DNA of 64,000 nt from Rhodospirillales bacterium (GCA_965221855.1 CBDCSV010000010.1:131650-195649), one strand, 5' to 3'. Counted from the stretch's first letter, positions 5,221 through 63,390 are shown. Notes: a model not told the origin generated them from the letters alone. Program-made: numbers and translations.

Positions 5221-5390
5221 CGCTGATGTGCCCCTCCTGTATTGGCCGAATCGCGTTTACCGATTCGGCGCTCACCCGGCTGGCCAAGGGTTAATGGATT
5301 GCAAGGACCGGCGGGATTCCGTCCCGCCTGCATGGATGGAAGCCATATGGGGGCCTCATATACGAGTCGGCGCGTTCGGCCAAGACGGAA

Positions 5391-5467
5391 TCATCCAACC
5401 GTCGACTTGATGTGCCTCGCGGCCATCTCCGCGTAATGGGCGCACCGGCCGGCATGACGCCTTCAAA
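5391..5467 (-). pseudogene. Gamma-carbonic-anhydrase remnant with a large internal deletion
   Basis: Encodes FEGVMP joined to (R)CAHYAEMAARHIKSTVG*, matching both ends of the intact gene at 6873-7415. Confidence 0.85.
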
Positions 5468-5518
5468 TTCCATTGGCTGATTCACCGGGGGCTTAACGCC
5501 CTTTGGCCTAGAGCCGAT

Positions 5519-6715
5519 CTAGAAATCGATAAAAATCTCGGCTCGCCGGTTGCCGGCTTCTCCCGAGGGCATGTATTCGTGATACCGGGGATACTGGGAG
5601 GACACCGCGCCGACGAACAAACTGCCGGGCCGGGCGCCGATTCTGATCAGCTCCCGGGCCACCGCATCGGCGCGGGCCGCGGAGACCCGAAGGTTCACCT
5701 CCTTGTGCCGGATCAGGTCCATGTTCGCGGTCCGGCGGCTGGCATGGCCGACGATCCGGATGGTGCCGCCGGTCTGGCGCTGCTGGGCGAAGACCTGGCG
5801 GATGATCCGCCGGTCCCGGGCATTGAGGCGGGACGACCCGTTGTCGAACTGAATGGTCGCCACCTGATAGGAACCGCGCCCCGCCGCCGGGCTGAATTCC
5901 GAGAGCCTCTGGAAGCCGCCGACCTTGGAGGCGGCGTCGGCGCCGGGCGGAAGCGCCGGGCGCGCGGCGCCGGGCGACAACGCCGGCGGGCCGATGGAGG
6001 CGCCGCGCGCGGTTTGGACGCCCGCGCTGGAGATCACAATGGTTCCTGGGGTTTCAGGCCCGCCGCCGTCAACCGCCGGCGCGGCCTGCCGGCGTTGCGG
6101 CGTGGGGCGCGGGGCCGGCGCGGCTTTCGGCGCCGGTTGCGGGGCTGATGCGGCCGTCGGGGGTGTCGGCGGTGTCGGCGCGGCTTGCCGCGGCGGGGGA
6201 GCCGGTCTCGGTGCGGGCGCCGCCGCAGCCGGAGGCCGGGGAGACGGCGTCGCCGTGCGGGGCGGCGTCTCGATCCGGGGCGCCGCGGCCCCGGGCGATT
6301 TTTGGGGGGATGTCCGGGGCGATGCCTGGAGCGGATTTACCGGATCGCCCTGGCGGCGGACCGCGTCGTTGGAATAGCGCCGGGCGCCCTCCCGGTCCGA
6401 AACCAGGCCGCGCTGGGTTTTGGCGCGCTGCTCCCGCGACGAGGGCTTGGGCCGCTCGGGCACGGTGTTCAGATCGGGGATGGGCTGACCGGCGCCCGGG
6501 GCCGCCTGCCCGCGCCCGGCCCGAGGATCGTTCTGGGCAGTCTCCGCCGCCCGCGTTTGGCCGTCGCTGTCCAAGACGAGATCGCGCGCGCCTTTGAACC
6601 ATTCCACGGGGTTGATGGCGTCGGGGATCGAGGAACATCCGGCAAGCAGCGCGACCACACTCACCGCGAGAATTCGCCGCCGCCGCTTGATCCGTCTACG
6701 TGCCGATCTACGCAT
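5519..6715 (-). CDS. OmpA-family lipoprotein, long paralog with Pro/Ala-rich linker
   Basis: MRRSARRRIKRRRRILAVSVVALLAGC lipobox; same N- and C-terminal blocks as 4375..5220. Confidence 0.85.
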   Translation of the reverse strand: MRRSARRRIKRRRRILAVSVVALLAGCSSIPDAINPVEWFKGARDLVLDSDGQTRAAETAQNDPRAGRGQAAPGAGQPIPDLNTVPERPKPSSREQRAKTQRGLVSDREGARRYSNDAVRRQGDPVNPLQASPRTSPQKSPGAAAPRIETPPRTATPSPRPPAAAAPAPRPAPPPRQAAPTPPTPPTAASAPQPAPKAAPAPRPTPQRRQAAPAVDGGGPETPGTIVISSAGVQTARGASIGPPALSPGAARPALPPGADAASKVGGFQRLSEFSPAAGRGSYQVATIQFDNGSSRLNARDRRIIRQVFAQQRQTGGTIRIVGHASRRTANMDLIRHKEVNLRVSAARADAVARELIRIGARPGSLFVGAVSSQYPRYHEYMPSGEAGNRRAEIFIDF

Positions 6716-6872
6716 CGTCGGTGCGCCCTTCGTCAGTTGACCGAATGCCGTTAACCGATTCGGCGCCCACCCTGCCATCCAAGGGTTAACAGATTGCAAA
6801 CATCGGCGGGATTCCGTCCCGCCTGCCTGGATGCGGCTCGTATTCGAGCCGGCCCGTTCGGCCAAGGCGGAA

Positions 6873-7415
6873 TCAGCCGCTGATGGACTTGATGTGCCGC
6901 TCGGCCATTTCCGCGTAGTGGGCGCACTGGTCGGGCCACTGGGCGACTTCCTCGTCCCGCAGGCCGCGCCAGTACTTCGCCGGATTGCCGGCCCACAGCT
7001 CGCCCTTCCTGACGCGCTTCCCGGGCGTCACCAGCGACCCGGCGGCGACCATGGCGCCCGTCTCCACCACCGCATTGTCCATGACCGTGGCGCCCATGCC
7101 GATGAAACACCCGTCCTCCAGCGTGCATCCGTGCAGCAGGCAGGAGTGGCCGACCAGGACGTCCGAGCCGATGAACGTATCGGCGATGCCTTCGGTGATG
7201 TGAACCACCGTATTGTCCTGGAGATTGGTGCCGCCGCCGACCTCGATGGTGCCGCAATCCCCGCGAAGCACGCAGCCATACCAGATGCTCGACCGGGACC
7301 CGATGGCGGTTTTGCCGATCACCGTCGCGGCGGGGGCGATGAACGCGTCTTCGGCAATGTCCGGCATGACGCCTTCGAAGGGGAGAATGAGTCCGTGTCC
7401 GTGCATGGATGACAT
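6873..7415 (-). CDS. Gamma carbonic anhydrase family (YrdA-like) hexapeptide-repeat protein
   Basis: AFIAPAATVIG, IWYGCVLRGD, NLQDNTVVH, VGHSCLLHGC. Confidence 0.92.
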   Translation of the reverse strand: MSSMHGHGLILPFEGVMPDIAEDAFIAPAATVIGKTAIGSRSSIWYGCVLRGDCGTIEVGGGTNLQDNTVVHITEGIADTFIGSDVLVGHSCLLHGCTLEDGCFIGMGATVMDNAVVETGAMVAAGSLVTPGKRVRKGELWAGNPAKYWRGLRDEEVAQWPDQCAHYAEMAERHIKSISG

Positions 7416-16645: not shown

Positions 16646-18808
16646 TCACCACCGTATCGCGCCGGTGAGAATTGCGCCGTGGGCCGGGGGTTCGTTGCCG
16701 TTGGCGCTCTCCCGGCGGGTGGCGTCGAGATCGACCCGGAAACCGGCATAGCCCGGCACCGCCGGGGTCAGCCGCCAGCCGACGCGGTAGTCCCGCCCGC
16801 CGCCGTCCGAGGCTCCGAACCCGGCATTGGGCGTGCCGGTCAGGCGCCCGCCCAACAGCCCGAAGCCGTAGCCGAGTTCGCCTTCCAAGGCGCCCGCCTC
16901 TCGCGCATTCGTAGCGCCCGACGCGGCGCCCCGTGGCAGCTCCTCCCGCCACAGGGCGCCGGCCCCGCCGGAGGGCGCGCCCCAGCGGGGGCTCAGGGAC
17001 AAGGACAGTCCGCGCCCGTCCGGCTCCGGCTGCATCCGCACCGTCAGGCTCGCGCCGCGCTCGTCGGCGCCCTTCTCCGAGTGGGCCGCGAGCCAGCGCC
17101 CGCGCGCCTCGACCGCGAGGCCGGGCGCCGCGACGCGCACCCCGCCCGCCAGTTCCAGGCCGGTTCCGGTCAGCCCGTCGCCGCCGTCCCGCCGCCCCGC
17201 CGTCTCGACGAAGGGCGTCAGCGTGGACCCGTCGTCGAACCCGATGCGCCTTGACGCCTCGATGCCGGCCCGCGCCCGCCAGACGTCGGCCCGTATGCCG
17301 TCCACCGCCTGTTCCTCTCCCTCTTCGCCGCCGCCCTTGGCGGTTCGCATCCTGGCGAGGCTCCCATCGCCTTGCGCCGCCAGGGCGATCCCCCCGAGGG
17401 GCGGCAGCTTCCGCTTGAGACCCACCGAACCCGCCCGCATGGTCAGATTGCTTTTCTCCGCCGGCTCGCCGTCTCCCGGCATGTGGCGCGCCTCGCCCCG
17501 GCCGGCGCCCAGCATGCCGCCGAGCTCCAGCCCGTTCCCGAAGGTCCAGCGCCCGTAGGGCCAGAGCGCCGTCAGGTCGGTCTCGATCCGGCCCTTTTCG
17601 TCGTCGAGGGTATAGTCCGTCTCGCTCATCCCGCGGGACACCGCGAGGCCCGCCACCCAACGCCCGGGACGATCCGAACCCCTGGGAGCCTCCCGCGCGT
17701 CCACGCCGAGCCAGCCGGTGCGGGTCTCGCCCCGGTAGCTCGAGACCGCGTCCGGGCGGCCCGAGAAGGAGCCGAAGTCCCCCCGGCCCCACACGGCCCA
17801 GCGGGGCGCAAGGGAATCCAACCTCTCATCCCCCTCCTTGTTTCCGGGGGCCGCGCCCAGCGCGAGCGAGAACGCGCTCGACCCCAGTAGATCGCCGGCC
17901 TCCATCCCCCGGCTCTCGCCGCCGCCCGGCGGCCAGACGCCATCCGGTCCCGCCGCGCCGGTCCCGCCGAACCGGACCGTCTCGCCGGCCAGCGACAGCC
18001 CCGCCGCCGGAACCGCATCGCCCAGCCGCGTGCCGATATGGTCCAGCGCACCCGCAACCGAGCGCGACGCCACCGCCGCCAGGGTCCGCTTCACCACCCG
18101 CTGCTGTTCCTCGGACGCCGGAGACCGGGGCGTGGCCGTGGTGCCCGTGCTCTTGGCGTAACCGTGGATGGCGATCTTCCAGGACACGTTGGACGAGCTG
18201 CTCCACGACCCACCCCATAGGCTTCCGTCGCCGATGCTCCAGCCCGCCGCCGCGCCCGCATCCTCGCTGTCCGAGTTCGTTCGGTGGTATGTGATTCCGG
18301 TGATCGTACCCGCCATCGCCCCTACCCACACCACGAAATACGTCGTGTTGGCGGCAAGGTCGATGCCCGTGGTCGTGCCGGTGACCGTCGTGCCGCTCTG
18401 GGTAATGGTCAACGCACCCAGGCTGCCGCCGGGCTTGTTGTTCGATCCCGACGACTCGATGCGCATTTCCAGGGTAGATATGTCGGAAGAGGTGAGCGTG
18501 CCGGTAACCGGGAATGTCACGCTGGTCAGCTTGTAGCCCGCGGCGTTGCCGCCGGTCGTGAACGCCTGTGCGCGACCAAGAGTAATAACAGTTGTGGAGT
18601 CAGTACTCTGCCCGGTGTTGCTCACCAGCGTGACGGAGGTCTGCGCCTCGGCCGCATCGGCGCCGAGCAGCAGGGCGAAGGCGAGGGCGAGCACGCAGGC
18701 CGCCGCGCGCCAGGCGGAAGGGCGGAATCGGGAAACGGCCCCCGGTGGAATGGACTGCACCGCCGTTGAACCGACCGTGTCCTCTCGCGTCATGCTGGGC
18801 CCCTGCAT
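16646..18808 (-). CDS. Autotransporter (type Va-like) with short passenger and C-terminal beta-barrel
   Basis: Signal peptide ...AAEA/QTSVTLVSNTGQ; Thr/Ser-rich passenger; barrel beginning WAVWGRGDFG; terminal GAIRW. Confidence 0.82.
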   Translation of the reverse strand: MQGPSMTREDTVGSTAVQSIPPGAVSRFRPSAWRAAACVLALAFALLLGADAAEAQTSVTLVSNTGQSTDSTTVITLGRAQAFTTGGNAAGYKLTSVTFPVTGTLTSSDISTLEMRIESSGSNNKPGGSLGALTITQSGTTVTGTTTGIDLAANTTYFVVWVGAMAGTITGITYHRTNSDSEDAGAAAGWSIGDGSLWGGSWSSSSNVSWKIAIHGYAKSTGTTATPRSPASEEQQRVVKRTLAAVASRSVAGALDHIGTRLGDAVPAAGLSLAGETVRFGGTGAAGPDGVWPPGGGESRGMEAGDLLGSSAFSLALGAAPGNKEGDERLDSLAPRWAVWGRGDFGSFSGRPDAVSSYRGETRTGWLGVDAREAPRGSDRPGRWVAGLAVSRGMSETDYTLDDEKGRIETDLTALWPYGRWTFGNGLELGGMLGAGRGEARHMPGDGEPAEKSNLTMRAGSVGLKRKLPPLGGIALAAQGDGSLARMRTAKGGGEEGEEQAVDGIRADVWRARAGIEASRRIGFDDGSTLTPFVETAGRRDGGDGLTGTGLELAGGVRVAAPGLAVEARGRWLAAHSEKGADERGASLTVRMQPEPDGRGLSLSLSPRWGAPSGGAGALWREELPRGAASGATNAREAGALEGELGYGFGLLGGRLTGTPNAGFGASDGGGRDYRVGWRLTPAVPGYAGFRVDLDATRRESANGNEPPAHGAILTGAIRW

Positions 18809-18812
18809 TGGT

Positions 18813-18846
18813 ATTACTCCCGATAACTGTCGTTATCGGGAGTAAT
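18813..18846. other. lox-like recombination site 1 (13-8-13)
   Basis: ATTACTCCCGATA-ACTGTCGT-TATCGGGAGTAAT; perfect inverted arms, 9/13 identical to the loxP arm; 37 bp before the recombinase ATG. Confidence 0.88.
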
Positions 18847-18883
18847 CTGCGGGCTCGCGATTGGACGAACCGGAGGCGCGCAT

Positions 18884-19867
18884 ATGTATCTCGAACCCCC
18901 GGCCGACCCCTGCGAGGAGCCGGGTAATGAACGCGCACCGGTGCTCGCGATGCGACTCCAACGGTTCCTGCAGACAACAAACGGCGCGTTCAGCACGAAC
19001 ACCGAACGGGCGCTCAGGTCGGACCTCGGCATCTATGCGGCGTGGTGCGCCGAGCGGGGGAAGAGGGTCTTGCCGGCGGCGCCCGAGACGGTCGCCGCCT
19101 TCATCGATGCGATGGCGGAGACCCGGGCGCCGGCCACGGTGCGCCGCTACGCCGCCAGCATCGCCAAGGTCCACCGGGAGACCGGATGCGGCAAGATCCT
19201 CAAAAGTCCGGCCGTGCGGCTCGCGCTCAGGCGCATGCACCGCGTGAAGGGGCGGCGCCAGAGACAGGCGCACGGCATGACCGGGCCGCTGCGCGAACGC
19301 CTGCTGGAGGCGGCGGGAGATAGATTGATCGACGACCGCAACCGGGCGCTGCTCGCCGTGGCCTATGACGCCATGCTGCGGCGCACCGAGCTCACGTCTC
19401 TGGAAGTGTCTGATTTTCTTGAGGAAATCGGCGGCGACGCGACCTTGCTGGTGCGCCGCTCCAAGACCGACGGCGAGGGCCGGGGCGAACGCCTCTACCT
19501 CGCGCGCGATACCGTTGTGTTGGTGCGCGCCTGGCTGGAACGCAGCGGGATCCAGGAGGGAAGGCTGTTCCGCTCGGTCGGCAAGGGCGGCGGGCTCGGC
19601 GAGGGGCTCGATCCGAGCCAGGTGCCGCGCATCTTCAAGGGCATGGCGCGCCGCGCCGGACTGCCGGCGGCGATGGTGCAGGGCCTGTCCGGGCACTCGG
19701 CCCGGGTGGGCGCGGCCCAGGACATGATCGCCGCCGGTATCGAGCTTCCGGCAATCCTCCAGGCCGGGCGGTGGAAGTCGACCGCCATGGTCAACCGCTA
19801 CGGCGAGCAGCTATTGGCGCGGCGCAGCGGGGCCGCCCAGCTCGCCCGGCTTCAGGAACGGAGCTGA
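18884..19867 (+). CDS. Cre-type tyrosine recombinase
   Basis: Catalytic set LRRTEL (R), RRSKTD (K), GHSARVG (HxxR), GRWKS (W), NRYG (Y); N-terminal TNTERALRSD helix; SD GGAGG. Confidence 0.92.
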   Translation: MYLEPPADPCEEPGNERAPVLAMRLQRFLQTTNGAFSTNTERALRSDLGIYAAWCAERGKRVLPAAPETVAAFIDAMAETRAPATVRRYAASIAKVHRETGCGKILKSPAVRLALRRMHRVKGRRQRQAHGMTGPLRERLLEAAGDRLIDDRNRALLAVAYDAMLRRTELTSLEVSDFLEEIGGDATLLVRRSKTDGEGRGERLYLARDTVVLVRAWLERSGIQEGRLFRSVGKGGGLGEGLDPSQVPRIFKGMARRAGLPAAMVQGLSGHSARVGAAQDMIAAGIELPAILQAGRWKSTAMVNRYGEQLLARRSGAAQLARLQERS

Positions 19868-20006
19868 AGGTTGCCGGGGGTGTGCGAATACGGCTGCCGG
19901 GCTATAATGACCGGGCGGCCATGGCGGTGCATGGGCGAGCCGTGGCGGCATCGAAGGGGCCGAATCCGGCCCTGGCGGGCCTCAAGGGCGCAAATCCGGA
20001 AAATGT

Positions 20007-20019
20007 TATCAGGAGTAAT
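20007..20019. other. Isolated lox half-site
   Basis: TATCAGGAGTAAT, 12/13 identical to the arm of site 1; no full partner arm at 8-bp spacing. Confidence 0.6.
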
Positions 20020-20170
20020 AATCGGCGCGGGCGGCGGGTCCGGCGTCCCGGCGGCGCTGCCCGGCAGGAGCCGGCCGGCCTGGAAAAAACGGCGGACGTT
20101 CAAGGGGTTACCGGAAATTGGCGGCGGAACGCGGTGCCTTGCCGGAGGTGCGGCGCACCGCCGGTGCAAG

Positions 20171-21450
20171 GGTAACGTCAAGAGTTATGTGTCAGGGAGA
20201 GAGGGGTACTGATTCCCTGAGACTTGTTTTCGTGAATGAAGACCGCGTAGAGGATGCGGTCCATTGAGGTTTTATCCTTGAAGGTTCCCATGGGCCGGGT
20301 TCGTCTGCGAACCTCGCGGAACCTCCGTTCGATGGCATTGGTGGTCCTGACCTGCTTTCGCTCGGCGAGGTCCTTGTAGCGGAAGCAGGTGAGCAGGTCG
20401 TCGAGGTCGTTGCGCAGGCAGGCGACGGCCTTGGGGTAGGTATCTTCCCAGGCGTCGGCGAAGCGGCGGGCGGCGGTCTCGGCCTTGCGGCGGTTGGGGG
20501 CATTCATGACGGCGTGGACGTCGGCCTTGACGGCCTGCTGGTCGGCTACGCGGACCTTGTTGAGGATGTTCCTGATTTTGTGCGCCCAGCACCTCTGAAC
20601 GGGGATGCCGTGATAGACGATCGGCAAGGCGGCGAGCAGGCCTTGGCCGCCATCAACGCAGATCATCTCAAGGCCCTCGCCGGTGAGGCCGCGGCGGTGC
20701 AACGCGGTGAGGAAGCGCTCCCACTCCGCGGCGCTCTCGCTGGCGGCGAGTTGGAAGTCGATAATCTCCTTCTTGCCGTCGTGCCGTATGCCCAGCGCCA
20801 CCAGGACCGGCCTCCTGAGCGCGCCGGCGCCGGTCTTGCAGGCCAGCACCACGCCGTCGAGCATCAGCGCCTTGTAGGCGTTCTTCAGCGGCCGGCGGTG
20901 GAATGCGGCGACCGACAGATCGAGGGTCTTGGCGACCCGGCTCACCGTCGCGGCCGAGACCGGACGCCCGAGCAGGGCAAGCAGGACCTCGCCGACCTTG
21001 CGGGTCGAGAGCCCCAGCACGAAGCCGGCCAGGATGGCGCGGTCGATCTCTGGAGCGCGCCTTGCGTAGCTCTTCAGAACCTCGGTCGGGCAGAAGTGCC
21101 GGGTGCGCGGCACGTTGAGCTCGATGTCGCCGAGCTCGCTGAGCAGGCGGCGCCGGTAGGTGCCGTTGCGCCGGTCGCGCATAGCGCTGCCATCGAGGCC
21201 GTCGAGCCAGCGATCCACCGCCTCGGCCATCCGGCCCTCGATGATCTCGGCCAGCGCCTGGCGGCCAAGCGGGCGATAACCCTCGCCCCAGTCCAATCCG
21301 CCTGCTTGCATCTCCTTCACCACCTCAAAGGCTTGTGGTAGGTTCTCAATCGTTACAGCTTGCTGTGGCATCGGGGTGATCCTTCTTGCGGTTGTCGTAA
21401 ACCACAGGGAGTACCCCATTCCCAACTGACACATAAATTTTTACGTCACC
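20171..21450 (-). mobile_element. IS256-family element, copy 1 (1280 bp)
   Basis: Ends GGTAACGTCAAGAG / TTTTTACGTCACC; 8-bp TSD GGTGCAAG at 20163 and 21451. Confidence 0.93.
20178..21371 (-). CDS. IS256-family transposase
   Basis: RNGTYRR, GLSTRKV, LMLDG, ICVDG, QRCWAH, TTNAIER. Confidence 0.93.
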   Translation of the reverse strand: MPQQAVTIENLPQAFEVVKEMQAGGLDWGEGYRPLGRQALAEIIEGRMAEAVDRWLDGLDGSAMRDRRNGTYRRRLLSELGDIELNVPRTRHFCPTEVLKSYARRAPEIDRAILAGFVLGLSTRKVGEVLLALLGRPVSAATVSRVAKTLDLSVAAFHRRPLKNAYKALMLDGVVLACKTGAGALRRPVLVALGIRHDGKKEIIDFQLAASESAAEWERFLTALHRRGLTGEGLEMICVDGGQGLLAALPIVYHGIPVQRCWAHKIRNILNKVRVADQQAVKADVHAVMNAPNRRKAETAARRFADAWEDTYPKAVACLRNDLDDLLTCFRYKDLAERKQVRTTNAIERRFREVRRRTRPMGTFKDKTSMDRILYAVFIHENKSQGISTPLSLTHNS

Positions 21451-21473
21451 GGTGCAAGTGCGTTCTTGACAAG

Positions 21474-21507
21474 TTTGCTCCTGATAACGACAGTTATCGG
21501 GAGTAAT
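21474..21507. other. lox-like recombination site 2, inverted relative to site 1
   Basis: TTTGCTCCTGATA-ACGACAGT-TATCGGGAGTAAT; spacer is the exact reverse complement of the site 1 spacer; inner arm has 3 mismatches. Confidence 0.85.
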
Positions 21508-21714
21508 CCAGCGCCGGACCAAGCGGCCGACGCCGGTCCGGACGGCTCAGGCCTCCGCTACTTTCCCCCATTCCCCGACACATCGTTAGTCCCGAAAGCG
21601 AAAGAGCATCGAGGGTGGGGGAGACCTTGTGCCGCGCCACTTGAAATCCCCTTAGATGATCTATAAATATAGCATGGCCTATTTTTACGATTTGTTTATG
21701 GGACGAACAGAGCA

Positions 21715-22053
21715 ATGGCGAAACCCGCACACAGAAGCTATTCCCGCTATGCCCGCGAAGCCGCGGAGCTTCTTGGGCTGATGATCCGTAACGCGCGCAT
21801 CGAACGCGGCATCACGGTCGCCGATGCCGCCGAACGCGCCGGGATTTCGCGCGGACTCGCGCACCGCATCGAAAAAGGCGAAATGGGCACCTCCATCGGT
21901 GCGGCCTTCGAGGTGGCCGCCATTGTCGGGTTGCGCTTGTTCGAAGCCGAACCGGCAACGCTGACGCGCCATCTGTCGATGGAACGCGACAAGCTCACCC
22001 TGCTGCCGCAATCCGTCCGCACGGGAAGGACGAAGGTGAAAGATGACTTCTGA
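21715..22053 (+). CDS. XRE/HipB-like HTH antitoxin
   Basis: IRNARIERGITVADAAERAGISRGLAHRIEKG; overlaps the hipA-like gene. Confidence 0.82.
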   Translation: MAKPAHRSYSRYAREAAELLGLMIRNARIERGITVADAAERAGISRGLAHRIEKGEMGTSIGAAFEVAAIVGLRLFEAEPATLTRHLSMERDKLTLLPQSVRTGRTKVKDDF

Positions 22054-23323
22054 TCGCCCCGGCACGAGAGTACCGGAGGAAGCCTACGTCTGGATATGGC
22101 TGCCCGGCGCGACGGCGCCGGTGGTCGCCGGCCGCATCGCGCGCGACGGCGGGCGGCTGATCTTCAACTACGGCCGGAGCTATCTGGACCGGAACGACCG
22201 CATCCCGATCCACGAACCTGAACTGCCGCTGCGCGGCGGAGCGATCGCGCCCGAAGCCGGGCTGAGCATGGCCGGATGCCTGCGCGACGCCTCGCCCGAT
22301 GGATGGGGGCGCCGCGTCATCCTGAACCGGACCCTCGGACGCAAGGGCAAGGATGCCGACACCGCCGAGCTCGACGAGCTGACCTATCTGCTGGAGTCCG
22401 GCTCGGACCGAATCGGCGCCCTGGATTTCCAACGCTCCCCTTCCGAGTACGTGCCGCGCGCCGCCCGAGCCGCGACGCTCGAGGAGTTGCTGAGCGCCGC
22501 CGAGAAAGTCGAGAATGGCGTGCCGCTGTCGCCCGATCTCGATCAGGCGCTGCTGCACGGCACGTCGATCGGCGGCGCGCGCCCGAAGGCGATGATCCAG
22601 GACGGCGACACGAAGCTGATCGCCAAGTTCTCGTCCTCGGCCGATACCTACAACGTGGTGAAGGCGGAATATGTCGCCATGCGCCTTGCCGCCGAGGCGG
22701 GGCTTGACGCCGCCCCCGTGCGTCTCGAGCGCGCCGCCGGCAGGGACGTGCTGCTGGTCGAGCGATTCGACCGCACCAGGAAGAAAGACGGCTGGACGCG
22801 GAAGGCGATGGTCTCGGCGCTGACGCTGTTCCTTCTCGATGAGATGATGGCGCGTTACGCCAGCTATGAAGTCTTCGCGGAAATCATCCGGCATCGCTTC
22901 ACCTCGCCGAAGGCGGCGCTGCACGAGCTGTACGGTCGGCTGGTGTTCAACGTCCTGTGCGGCAACACCGACGATCACGCCCGCAACCATGCGGGCTTCT
23001 GGGACGGCGAACACCTGACCCTGACGCCCGCCTATGACATTTGCCCGCAGATGCGCACCGGCAATGTGGCCGGCCAAGCGATGCTGATCGTAGGAGACAA
23101 CCGGACGAGCACACTTGCGGCCTGCCTCGAGGCCGCGCCGAATTTCCAACTCGGCGAGACAGCGGCGAAAGACATCATCGCACGGCAGATCGGCGCAATC
23201 CGGGACGCATGGGATGACATCTGCGAGGAGGCCGCATTGACCGAAGTCGAAGGCAACCTGTTCGGCCAGCGGATCTTTCTGAACGACTATATCTTCGAAG
23301 GCGCTCCGAAAGGCCCGTGGTGA
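22043..23323 (+). CDS. hipA: HipA-family kinase toxin
   Basis: GTSIGGARPKA, LLVERFDR, GNTDDHARN, LTPAYD. Confidence 0.9.
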   Translation: MTSDRPGTRVPEEAYVWIWLPGATAPVVAGRIARDGGRLIFNYGRSYLDRNDRIPIHEPELPLRGGAIAPEAGLSMAGCLRDASPDGWGRRVILNRTLGRKGKDADTAELDELTYLLESGSDRIGALDFQRSPSEYVPRAARAATLEELLSAAEKVENGVPLSPDLDQALLHGTSIGGARPKAMIQDGDTKLIAKFSSSADTYNVVKAEYVAMRLAAEAGLDAAPVRLERAAGRDVLLVERFDRTRKKDGWTRKAMVSALTLFLLDEMMARYASYEVFAEIIRHRFTSPKAALHELYGRLVFNVLCGNTDDHARNHAGFWDGEHLTLTPAYDICPQMRTGNVAGQAMLIVGDNRTSTLAACLEAAPNFQLGETAAKDIIARQIGAIRDAWDDICEEAALTEVEGNLFGQRIFLNDYIFEGAPKGPW

Positions 23324-49272: not shown

Positions 49273-50552
49273 GGTGACGTAAAAATTTATGTGTCAGTTG
49301 GGAATGGGGTACTCCCTGTGGTTTACGACAACCGCAAGAAGGATCACCCCGATGCCACAGCAAGCTGTAACGATTGAGAACCTACCACAAGCCTTTGAGG
49401 TGGTGAAGGAGATGCAAGCAGGCGGATTGGACTGGGGCGAGGGTTATCGCCCGCTTGGCCGCCAGGCGCTGGCCGAGATCATCGAGGGCCGGATGGCCGA
49501 GGCGGTGGATCGCTGGCTCGACGGCCTCGATGGCAGCGCTATGCGCGACCGGCGCAACGGCACCTACCGGCGCCGCCTGCTCAGCGAGCTCGGCGACATC
49601 GAGCTCAACGTGCCGCGCACCCGGCACTTCTGCCCGACCGAGGTTCTGAAGAGCTACGCAAGGCGCGCTCCAGAGATCGACCGCGCCATCCTGGCCGGCT
49701 TCGTGCTGGGGCTCTCGACCCGCAAGGTCGGCGAGGTCCTGCTTGCCCTGCTCGGGCGTCCGGTCTCGGCCGCGACGGTGAGCCGGGTCGCCAAGACCCT
49801 CGATCTGTCGGTCGCCGCATTCCACCGCCGGCCGCTGAAGAACGCCTACAAGGCGCTGATGCTCGACGGCGTGGTGCTGGCCTGCAAGACCGGCGCCGGC
49901 GCGCTCAGGAGGCCGGTCCTGGTGGCGCTGGGCATACGGCACGACGGCAAGAAGGAGATTATCGACTTCCAACTCGCCGCCAGCGAGAGCGCCGCGGAGT
50001 GGGAGCGCTTCCTCACCGCGTTGCACCGCCGCGGCCTCACCGGCGAGGGCCTTGAGATGATCTGCGTTGATGGCGGCCAAGGCCTGCTCGCCGCCTTGCC
50101 GATCGTCTATCACGGCATCCCCGTTCAGAGGTGCTGGGCGCACAAAATCAGGAACATCCTCAACAAGGTCCGCGTAGCCGACCAGCAGGCCGTCAAGGCC
50201 GACGTCCACGCCGTCATGAATGCCCCCAACCGCCGCAAGGCCGAGACCGCCGCCCGCCGCTTCGCCGACGCCTGGGAAGATACCTACCCCAAGGCCGTCG
50301 CCTGCCTGCGCAACGACCTCGACGACCTGCTCACCTGCTTCCGCTACAAGGACCTCGCCGAGCGAAAGCAGGTCAGGACCACCAATGCCATCGAACGGAG
50401 GTTCCGCGAGGTTCGCAGACGAACCCGGCCCATGGGAACCTTCAAGGATAAAACCTCAATGGACCGCATCCTCTTCGCGGTCTTCATTCACGAAAACAAG
50501 TCTCAGGGAATCAGTACCCCAGTCTCCCTGACACATAACTCTTGACGTTACC
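49273..50552 (+). mobile_element. IS256-family element, copy 2 (1280 bp)
   Basis: 8-bp TSD GTGTCCGG at 49265 and 50553; nearly identical to copy 1. Confidence 0.93.
49352..50545 (+). CDS. IS256-family transposase
   Basis: Same motifs as copy 1; two amino-acid differences near the C-terminus. Confidence 0.93.
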   Translation: MPQQAVTIENLPQAFEVVKEMQAGGLDWGEGYRPLGRQALAEIIEGRMAEAVDRWLDGLDGSAMRDRRNGTYRRRLLSELGDIELNVPRTRHFCPTEVLKSYARRAPEIDRAILAGFVLGLSTRKVGEVLLALLGRPVSAATVSRVAKTLDLSVAAFHRRPLKNAYKALMLDGVVLACKTGAGALRRPVLVALGIRHDGKKEIIDFQLAASESAAEWERFLTALHRRGLTGEGLEMICVDGGQGLLAALPIVYHGIPVQRCWAHKIRNILNKVRVADQQAVKADVHAVMNAPNRRKAETAARRFADAWEDTYPKAVACLRNDLDDLLTCFRYKDLAERKQVRTTNAIERRFREVRRRTRPMGTFKDKTSMDRILFAVFIHENKSQGISTPVSLTHNS

Positions 50553-62055: not shown

Positions 62056-62110
62056 GCGGGGGGCGTATGTTTACTCCAACCCGCCCCCCGAAAACAAGCG
62101 CCCGTTGGGG

Positions 62111-63390
62111 GGATTGGACTGGGGCGAGGGTTATCGCCCGCTTGGCCGCCAGGCGCTGGCCGAGATCATCGAGGGCCGGATGGCCGAGGCGGTGGATCGC
62201 TGGCTCGACGGCCTCGATGGCAGCGCTATGCGCGACCGGCGCAACGGCACCTACCGGCGTTGCCTGCTCAGCGAACTCGGCGACATCGAGCTCAACGTGC
62301 CGCGCACCCGGCACTTCTGCCCGACCGAGATCCTGCGCGGCTATGCAAGACGCGCCCCGGAGATCGACCGCGCCATCCTGGCCGGCTTCGTGCTGGGGCT
62401 CTCGACGCGCAAGGTCGGTGAGGTCCTGCTTGCCCTGCTCGGGCGCCCGGTCTCGGCCGCGACCGTGAGCCGGGTCGCCAAGACCCTGGACGCAACGGTC
62501 GCGGCTTTCCACCGCAGGCCGCTAAAGAACGTCTACAAGGCGCTGATGCTCGACGGCGTGGTGCTGGCCCGCAAGACCGGCGCCGGCGCGCTCCGCAGGC
62601 CGGTCCTTGTGGCGTTGGGCATACGGCACGACGGCAAGAAGGAGATTATCGACTTTTGTCTCTCAGGCAGCGAGAGCGCCGCCGAATGGGAGCGCTTCCT
62701 CACCGCGCTGCACCGCCGCGGCCTCACCGGCGAGGGCCTGGAGATGATCTGCGTCGATGGCGGCCAGGGCCTGCTCGCCGCCTTGCCGGTCGTCTATCAC
62801 GGCATCCCGGTCCAGAGATGCTGGGCGCACAAGATGCGCAACATCCTCGACAAGGTCCGCAAGACCGACCAGGAGGCCGTCAAGGCCGACGTCCACGACG
62901 TCATGAACGCAGACACTCGGCCAAAGGCGCTCAGCGCCGCCCGCCGCTTCGCCGACGCCTGGGAGCAGACCTACCCCAAGGCCGTCGCCTGCCTGCGCAA
63001 CGACCTCGACGACTTGCTCACCTGCTTCCGCTACAAGACCCTTGCCGAACGAAAGCAGGTCAGGACCACCAACGCCATCGAACGACGGTTCCGGGAGGTC
63101 CGGAGACGAACCCGGCCCATGGGAACCTTCCAGGACAAGACCTCAATGGACCGCATCCTCTTCGCGGTCTTCATTCACGAAAACAAGTCTCAGGGAATCA
63201 GTACCCCTCTCTCCCTGACACACAACTCTTGACGTTACCTGGTGACGTAAAAATTTATGTGTCAGTTGGGAATGGGGTACTCCCTGTGGTTTACGACAAC
63301 CGCAAGAAGGAGCACCCCGATGCCACAGCAAGCTGTAACGATTGAGAACCTACCACAAGCCTTTGAGGTGGTGAAGGAGATGCCGTTACC
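62111..63390 (+). mobile_element. Rearranged (circularly permuted) IS256-family element, diverged isoform
   Basis: IS nt 152-1280 (62111-63239), T, IS nt 1-143 (63241-63383), CGTTACC; transposase split. Confidence 0.82.

Follow-up and report, generated by a model that had tools for sequence, protein, structure and literature searches.

Positions 18813-21507 of the window (the whole 64,000-nt stretch of Rhodospirillales bacterium DNA analysed here, GCA_965221855.1 CBDCSV010000010.1:131650-195649) probably form a self-contained invertible promoter cassette (inverton) with its own Cre-like recombinase, a reading to which we assign a probability of about 0.7 on the basis of sequence comparison. 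In the proposed mechanism, the recombinase would act on two inverted 34-bp lox-like sites and flip the segment that they enclose. An outward promoter, with its -35 element (TTGACA) inside site 2 and a weak -10 in the crossover spacer, would in the present orientation fire into a non-coding, conserved flank and perhaps onward into hipBA, leaving the autotransporter gene at the opposite end OFF. Inversion would set the TTGACA promoter before the autotransporter and turn it ON; the ON junction would read CCTGATAACGACAGTTATCGGGAGTAATACCAATG, together with ATTACTCCCGATAACGACAGTTATCGGGAGTAATCCAGCG. We infer that the promoter is active and that inversion is ongoing in the source organism. Our confidence is lower for the switch activity of the window copy itself, which bears an insertion sequence (IS). 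Phase variation by a Cre-like enzyme had already been proposed in a sequence-only reading of this DNA, which did not mention the IS, the accessory half-site and IHF-like motif, or the conserved right flank that belongs to the system. When re-read directly, its statements on the sequence (the sites, TTGACA, the 17-nt spacing, GACAGT, GCCCGC and the outward neighbours) are all correct. Its interpretation is partly supported. Comparative evidence speaks for a conserved cassette, for partner sites and for OFF as the most likely state, but not for a ribosome-binding site (RBS) within site 1.

A Cre-like recombinase gene between two lox-like sites

Site 1 (18813..18846) reads ATTACTCCCGATA ACTGTCGT TATCGGGAGTAAT in a 13-8-13 format, and its arms are complementary at 13/13 positions. 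Site 2 (21474..21507) reads TTTGCTCCTGATA ACGACAGT TATCGGGAGTAAT. The spacer of site 2 is the exact reverse complement of that of site 1, and the two sites are therefore inverted relative to each other. Half-sites resembling TATCGGGAGTAAT with at most two mismatches are found four times in the window versus 0.54 expected, a number reached in 0/100 shuffles; the lox-like sites exceed chance. The recombinase ATG follows site 1 at a distance of 38 nt; on the other side, the first ATG of the autotransporter open reading frame (ORF) is 4 nt away. The segment, 2.7 kb long with the IS, contains the gene for a Cre-like tyrosine recombinase and an IS256-family insertion. Both neighbours, the autotransporter gene to the left and hipB/hipA to the right, are oriented away from it.

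The recombinase (18884..19867, plus strand; 327 aa, PF00589) is preceded by an RBS, GGAGG, at 18872-18876. Against solved structures, Cre is the best match (E about 3e-29 over residues 33-313), with XerD at 4e-3. Residues R166, K194, H271, R274, W297 and Y306 align with R173, K201, H289, R292, W315 and Y324 of Cre, and these six catalytic residues do not vary among 24 homologues. Sequence, catalytic residues and site format together assign the segment enzyme to the Cre-type recombinases. A homologue search returned 2393 matches, of which the best 120 are almost all 327 aa long and 72-93% identical to the query. Exact-protein look-ups with the window recombinase and with P0004 gave no match, and a scan of viral contigs found no relatives. 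The closest relatives from cultured bacteria are recombinases of Methylobacterium plasmids, with 45-48% identity. At nine of the related loci (L011, L032, L036, L051, L055, L057, L061, L067 and L068), a second, more distant recombinase homologue is encoded 3-4.5 kb from the first, on either strand.

The candidate -35 element, a perfect TTGACA on the plus strand (21466..21471), lies 2 nt inside site 2. It is followed, after 17 nt, by a -10-like GACAGT (21489-21494) within the site 2 spacer. At the corresponding place inside site 1, the hexamer in the outward direction is GCCCGC.

Evidence from related loci

The first two close relatives of the window cassette are a locus with the same kind of IS (L001) and an IS-free one (L002); a scan of one genome per species added 78 loci. 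Comparisons over 59 loci refer to the window and the 58 related loci where both sites could be placed. The loci come from Alpha- and Gammaproteobacteria, Vicinamibacterales (Acidobacteriota), Longimicrobiales (Gemmatimonadota) and one Chloroflexi bin. The cassette-bearing records include chromosome-level assemblies, and a sponge origin is indicated by several record names (Spongia_Bin9, Candidatus Poriferihabitaceae). Protein-level identity of the cassette is 60-93% among Alpha-/Gammaproteobacteria, Acidobacteriota and Gemmatimonadota, and many of the genomes concerned are sponge-associated. The modules share a common order, namely, site 1, recombinase, a lone half-site, TTGACA and inverted site 2, and a uniform length of about 1.34-1.41 kb. 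Site 1 is found 62-91 nt before the recombinase start in almost all 59 loci. The inverted site 2 usually lies about 250-330 nt past the recombinase stop, and about 55-65 nt past it in the Longimicrobiales type. Decay is seen in single copies: site 1 has one spacer mismatch in L089 and a replaced outer arm in L083, and the outer arm of site 2 is degenerate in L049. Site 2 is absent from L022 and L091-L093, and in the latter three a P450 gene fragment directly follows the recombinase.

The Methylobacterium type is represented by the plasmid locus that was examined, L096 (pMRAD01). It has one GATA-N8-TATC palindrome upstream of the gene; downstream of the recombinase, neither a second inverted site nor a TTGACA element is present in this one plasmid locus. 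Single-site loci of this type look like the ancestral state. Since the cultured relative has a single palindrome and no second site, the second site and the parts adjoining it look like an innovation. Genomes often contain several copies of the cassette, which usually adjoin large genes of adhesin-like type. Three paralogous modules in one genome (L014, L017 and L019 in CBDBCG01) have the common spacer GTAATAGC and near-identical arms; thus, the recombinase could also act between loci and bring about chromosomal rearrangements. Further paralogues of that genome have different spacers.

The covariation of the two spacers is an indirect indication that the sites recombine with each other. In 58/59 loci the central 6 nt agree between the two spacers, though 22 different hexamers occur overall, versus identity in 10% of cases when spacers are paired at random. 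Within loci, the two sites differ at 14.7% of arm positions and at 0.3% of central spacer positions; between loci, the spacers differ at 32%. The remaining within-locus spacer differences are mostly at the outermost spacer bases. This pattern fits a 6-bp crossover, as in Cre.

Exchanged flanks provide a second, likewise indirect line of evidence. The breakpoint of the swaps falls inside the site, so that outer arms go with the flanks and inner arms with the module. One chromosome has a flank of about 100 nt (B'', outer arm TATCGCGAGTAAA) in both positions: in L070 it adjoins site 1, next to the recombinase-side inner arm, and in L071 and L077 it adjoins site 2, next to the promoter-side inner arm. 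For another flank (B'), the adjoining site is site 1 in L049 and site 2 in L050, from the genome of L049, and in L063 and L066. With the long alphaproteobacterial flank B, site 2 is the neighbour in L005, L021 and at least ten other loci, and site 1 in L022 and L091-L093, where the flank extends over 435 nt at 80-82% identity, colinear from the boundary. Genes have changed sides as well: a homologous lipoprotein gene is next to site 1 in L050 but on the promoter side in L070, and L054 has a Calx-beta autotransporter on the promoter side, though genes of that kind are usually at site 1. The swaps appear to be the footprint of site-specific inversion, the two sites behaving as recombination partners.

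The sequence-only reading had placed a perfect -35 next to site 2, and this element is a recurrent feature of the family. Matches to TTGACA of at least 5/6 were counted in the 11 nt inside each site and, as a control, in a window 30 nt further in. Inside site 2 they occur in 41/59 loci (29 of them perfect, 38 at the identical offset, -8), versus 0/59 inside site 1 and 2/59 in the control window. The positions bordering TTGACA are not conserved. Three Poriferihabitaceae copies lack TTGACA and have, in the same place, an outward TTGAC(T/C)-N15-16-TATATT. Conservation of TTGACA and its replacement in Poriferihabitaceae thus identify an outward element at the site 2 end, of putative promoter activity, as part of the common cassette design.

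The candidate target in the window is an autotransporter gene (16646..18808, minus strand; PF03797, E=5e-13; NF041539, E=1.6e-19), whose product has an N-terminal choice-of-anchor R passenger and a C-terminal beta-barrel. In related loci too, the genes facing site 1 mostly encode secreted or surface proteins and start 4-170 nt from the site. Their products include autotransporters with Calx-beta, cadherin-like or SWM repeats, an S8 protease with a beta-barrel end, RTX-like repeat proteins and lipoproteins. In the nine contigs with recombinase P0043, the surface-protein gene is always on the site 1 side, and a surface gene at site 1 is clearly the majority state. In the window, the autotransporter starts 4-19 nt outside site 1, and a consensus scan of 18300-22100 found no sigma-70-like promoter upstream of it in the present orientation. 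Because hardly any space, if any, is left for its own promoter and none was found upstream, the autotransporter is most likely OFF in the assembled window. Comparison supports the same conclusion of the sequence-only reading: the start abuts site 1 and TTGACA is present only at the site 2 end.

The details of the start are different from those first proposed. Read on the minus strand, site 1 runs TATCGGGAGTAAT-ACCA-ATG, with the ATG at 18808-18806 and a GGAG ending 8 nt earlier, and this GGAG had been taken for the RBS of the autotransporter. Most relatives, however, have the arm TATCGCGCG, which lacks GGAG, and their RBS lies outside the site. A second in-frame ATG is present at 18793. It belongs to a leader type common to the window, L003, L004 and L009, with the conserved start ATGACGCG..., encoding MTRxxTV, and in the window and L003 a purine-rich stretch, AGGGG(G), is found 6 nt upstream of it. 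In L004 and L009, the counterpart of the first ATG is in another reading frame, and L003 has ATT in its place. The start in use is therefore probably the ATG at 18793 rather than that at 18808. Use of a different start codon had been named in advance as a finding that would count against the switch; the second ATG is indeed favoured, but both candidate starts are outside site 1, and the switch logic is thus unaffected.

Accessory elements, insertions and rival explanations

Besides the two sites, the module contains elements that may regulate the reaction. A lone half-site, TATCAGGAGTAAT (20007..20019, plus strand), is present in nearly all modules and agrees with the arms of its own locus at 11.6/13 positions versus 9.65/13 for those of other loci. 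It is positioned 177-180 or 199-201 nt upstream of site 2, roughly whole helical turns, and the two classes are about two turns apart. About halfway between it and site 2 lies an IHF-like motif, GTTCAAGGGGTTA (20098..20110, plus strand), at a distance of about 88 nt from site 2 if the IS is left out. A relaxed version of this motif is found at about -88 in 27/44 modules versus 0.7% of shuffled controls. A half-site scan also identified a degenerate inverted half-site in the right flank (21585-21597; reverse complement TTTCGGGACTAAC, 10/13), which follows the local arm type. In the L007 group, the flank half-site is located at about +105 to +125 after site 2 and is followed by an invariant GATATC. 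The lone half-site, the putative IHF-like motif and the flank half-site may control inversion, perhaps with a bias to the majority state.

The IS256-family element (20171..21450, minus strand; PF00872, E=7e-77; NF033543) has terminal inverted repeats, a transposase ORF at 20178-21434 and an 8-bp target duplication, GGTGCAAG, at 20163-20170 and 21451-21458. It is inserted 15 nt upstream of TTGACA and separates the accessory half-site and the IHF-like motif from the -35 element and site 2. The IS occupies the identical module position in the window (20163-21458) and in L001 (7266-8561), where the IS-free L002 has GGTACTAA. The two IS copies are 92.8% identical and their target duplications differ (GGTGCAAG vs GACGGGAG), which suggests independent insertions into a hot spot rather than one old event. 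Two further copies are present in the window, at 49275-50552 and 62108-63383. Identity is 99.8% for one of them; for the other it is 91.6% along most of the copy and 99.3% in an end piece. An IS21-like two-gene pair or IS66 lies between the recombinase stop and site 2 in L071 (7110-9507), L077 (7053-9450) and L083/L086/L088 (about 5255-6971). This interval seems to tolerate or attract insertions.

On the right, a conserved remnant of flank B (21508..21606, plus strand), with a GC-rich hairpin, is common to the window, L001, L002 and L004. Conservation of the flank begins at the site boundary; it extends over about 100 nt in the window group, and in the L007 group over as much as about 800 nt. 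A consensus fold of the right flank showed hairpins that compensatory changes did not support, and the z-score of the single-sequence fold was -0.72; Rfam searches with the window region and a long flank B produced no relevant match. A coding flank B, or a small protein, was considered and ruled out: the indels are not multiples of three and no ORF is common to the loci. Library matches identify the following genes as a hipB-like helix-turn-helix antitoxin gene (21715-22053, plus strand) and a HipA-family kinase gene (22043-23323, plus strand). The same consensus scan found no terminator-like site between site 2 and hipB; thus, read-through into hipBA would be possible. Of the loci compared, only the window has hipBA next to the cassette, past about 100 nt of conserved flank. 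In other loci, the right-hand side has unrelated genes or genes facing the opposite way, giving no sign that hipBA belongs to the cassette design. Toxin-antitoxin pairs of several kinds (hipBA, RES-Xre, MazE-PIN, HicB-like) repeatedly adjoin recombinase loci, as in the window (21715-23323), L094/L095 (5135-6014), L091 (5508-6190) and L097 (4540-5513). A TraL-like gene near the L091/L092 recombinase suggests that the setting may be mobile or plasmid-like. In the short Longimicrobiales/Vicinamibacterales variant (L075, L076, L078 and L079), an ORF of about 780-810 aa on the promoter side begins 33-181 nt beyond site 2; its N-terminus, judged by eye, resembles a signalling protein.

Several observations weigh against the invertible cassette as described. 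The -10-like GACAGT matches the consensus at 3/6 positions, and the consensus promoter and terminator scan of 18300-22100 recognized no promoter on either strand, the TTGACA site included. In alphaproteobacteria, sigma-70 promoters usually combine a strong -35 with a poorly conserved -10 that keeps A2 and T6, which may speak for the proposed -10. No convincing or conserved promoter of the recombinase itself was apparent when site 1 and the regions beside it were searched by eye. In addition, an alignment of 29 modules revealed a TATAAT/TATGAT box (19903..19908, plus strand), about 35-45 nt past the recombinase stop and also found at the aligned position in about 15 modules. It is preceded, at 16-18 nt, by a conserved TGTACG-like motif, and the pair faces site 2. 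This candidate second outward promoter element could be the real promoter; whichever of the two serves, transcription would exit via site 2. The flank swaps, which involve paralogues or different genomes, could partly be due to recombination between copies instead of local inversion. Contigs with identical recombinase offered no locus in both orientations: the sets P0043 (9 contigs), P0088 (3) and P0108 (2) have the same orientation or are uninformative. A scan of JGI metagenome contigs for ACGACAGTTATCGGGAGTAA, the spacer joined to the outer arm, which would have picked up either junction state, gave one unrelated chance match (L081). The search of other strains for the flipped junction, suggested in the sequence-only reading, thus yielded swapped flanks in paralogues and other genomes and not the same locus both ways. 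Likewise, Cre-like phase variation has in its favour the Cre-type enzyme, the co-varying spacers and the swapped flanks, and against it that no locus has been seen in both states. Finally, in the window and L001 the IS lengthens the spacing between the accessory parts and site 2 by 1.29 kb and may have altered or locked the window copy.

This last point leads to the explanation that the family is a real switch of which the window copy has been locked or crippled by the IS, with inversion lost or unregulated and the autotransporter staying OFF. The fixed spacing of the half-site and the IHF-like motif in IS-free modules implies that the distance now extended by 1.29 kb is important, and decay is evident elsewhere, in the loss of site 2 from L022 and L091-L093, of the outer arm in L083 and of an intact site 2 in L049. 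Yet the window keeps both full sites, identical spacers, the -35 element and an intact recombinase ORF, and L001, with the same kind of IS at the same position, is otherwise intact, as are other modules with IS21 or IS66 in the same interval. Moreover, Cre itself requires no accessory sites. A locked window copy seems less likely than not. Alternatively, the cassette might be a two-way toggle that now drives a flank RNA or hipBA rightward and, after inversion, the autotransporter. The conserved right flank, the lack of a terminator-like site in the scanned stretch between site 2 and hipB, and the gene 30-180 nt from site 2 on the promoter side in L067, L075, L076, L078 and L079 are consistent with such a toggle. 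It is, however, at odds with a flank in which no ORF is kept between loci, indels are not multiples of three, and neither an Rfam match nor covariation support for a structure was obtained; genes past the flank vary or face the opposite way, and hipBA is a neighbour in the window only. We regard the toggle as rather improbable.

It is also conceivable that there is no expression switch at all, the locus being a plasmid-type Cre-like resolution system or a mobile element in which the second site is a by-product of duplication and TTGACA has nothing to do with the autotransporter. The single upstream palindrome of the Methylobacterium plasmid recombinases, the closest cultured relatives (45-48%), the several copies per genome and the spread over phyla, and the toxin-antitoxin genes and IS elements nearby would agree with this. 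But the inverted second site, its distance, the -35 element and the accessory half-site are conserved in the 59 loci, the spacers are identical within loci and variable between them, and with inverted sites Cre-type enzymes only invert and cannot excise. Both flanks are conserved with the module, which indicates that the sites are not the ends of a transposing unit. The absence of any switch is very improbable. A transposon bounded by the two sites was ruled out on the same two grounds, conserved flanks and inverted sites that cannot excise. An invertible promoter cassette remains our preferred explanation.

Relationship to known recombination systems

In the searchable literature, no description of such a cassette was found. 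A broader proposal, which we put at slightly less than an even chance, is that the family is a horizontally spread, Cre-type 'plug-in' cassette for phase variation, present in at least four phyla and in many sponge-associated genomes. It would serve varied surface proteins with a promoter split across the crossover site, and phased half-sites together with an IHF-type bend would control direction. If the cassette is active, surface variation would be stochastic in many such symbionts, with consequences for host recognition and phage attack, and the module would be a unit transferable between phyla. It would also represent a natural Cre/lox-like library, with at least 22 spacer variants and co-varying arm specificities, and a possible source of orthogonal recombinase/site pairs.

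The enzyme and its sites are closest to Cre/loxP of phage P1; Cre-type recombinases available for comparison also include Dre, Vika and those in PMC10250229. Both the cassette and Cre/loxP have the catalytic R-K-H-R-W-Y set, a 34-bp site by the gene, 13-bp inverted arms and an asymmetric 8-bp spacer, and Cre is the closest enzyme among solved structures. Unlike P1, where one site serves circularisation and dimer resolution, the cassette has two inverted sites enclosing the gene, a putative promoter built across one of them and a natural reaction that would be inversion. It also has an accessory half-site, an IHF-like motif and a degenerate flank half-site, all of which Cre is without. The closest annotated relatives, the Methylobacterium/Methylorubrum plasmid recombinases (for example, pMRAD01 WP_012329841), likewise have a GATA-N8-TATC palindrome just upstream, whereas L096 (pMRAD01), the one locus checked, is without the second inverted site or TTGACA.

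In architecture, the cassette resembles the H segment of Salmonella Hin, arranged as hixL - hin - fljBA promoter - hixR, with Gin, Cin and Pin in the same family. In both, the recombinase gene is inside the segment by one site, and an outward promoter, putative in the cassette, lies at the other end to switch a surface-protein gene. Hin, however, is a serine recombinase that needs an enhancer and Fis, whereas the cassette enzyme is a PF00589 tyrosine recombinase with lox-like sites, which places it outside the Hin/Gin family, and the -10-like hexamer of the cassette lies inside the crossover spacer.

Tyrosine recombinases that invert promoters are well known from bacteria of the gut and urinary tract, where FimB-type enzymes encoded outside short switches act on short repeats, and IHF is known to be involved at fimS. 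As proposed for the cassette, a tyrosine recombinase at fimS (FimB/FimE) and ipuS flips a promoter for an adhesin or autotransporter, possibly with an IHF-type element in common; ipuS of E. coli (IpuA/IpuB) controls the autotransporter UpaE (PMC6083910). These switches differ in being about 260-314 bp long with short inverted repeats and in having recombinase genes outside, which can act in trans on several switches. The FimB/FimE arrangement (about 300 bp, 9-bp-class repeats, outside recombinase) contrasts with a 1.4-kb segment, 34-bp sites and an inside recombinase, and FimB-type enzymes with Cre-type ones. As judged from these comparisons, the novelty of the cassette is that a Cre-type enzyme and loxP-format sites are packaged inside the invertible unit, with a putative promoter across the recombination site and conserved accessory sites.

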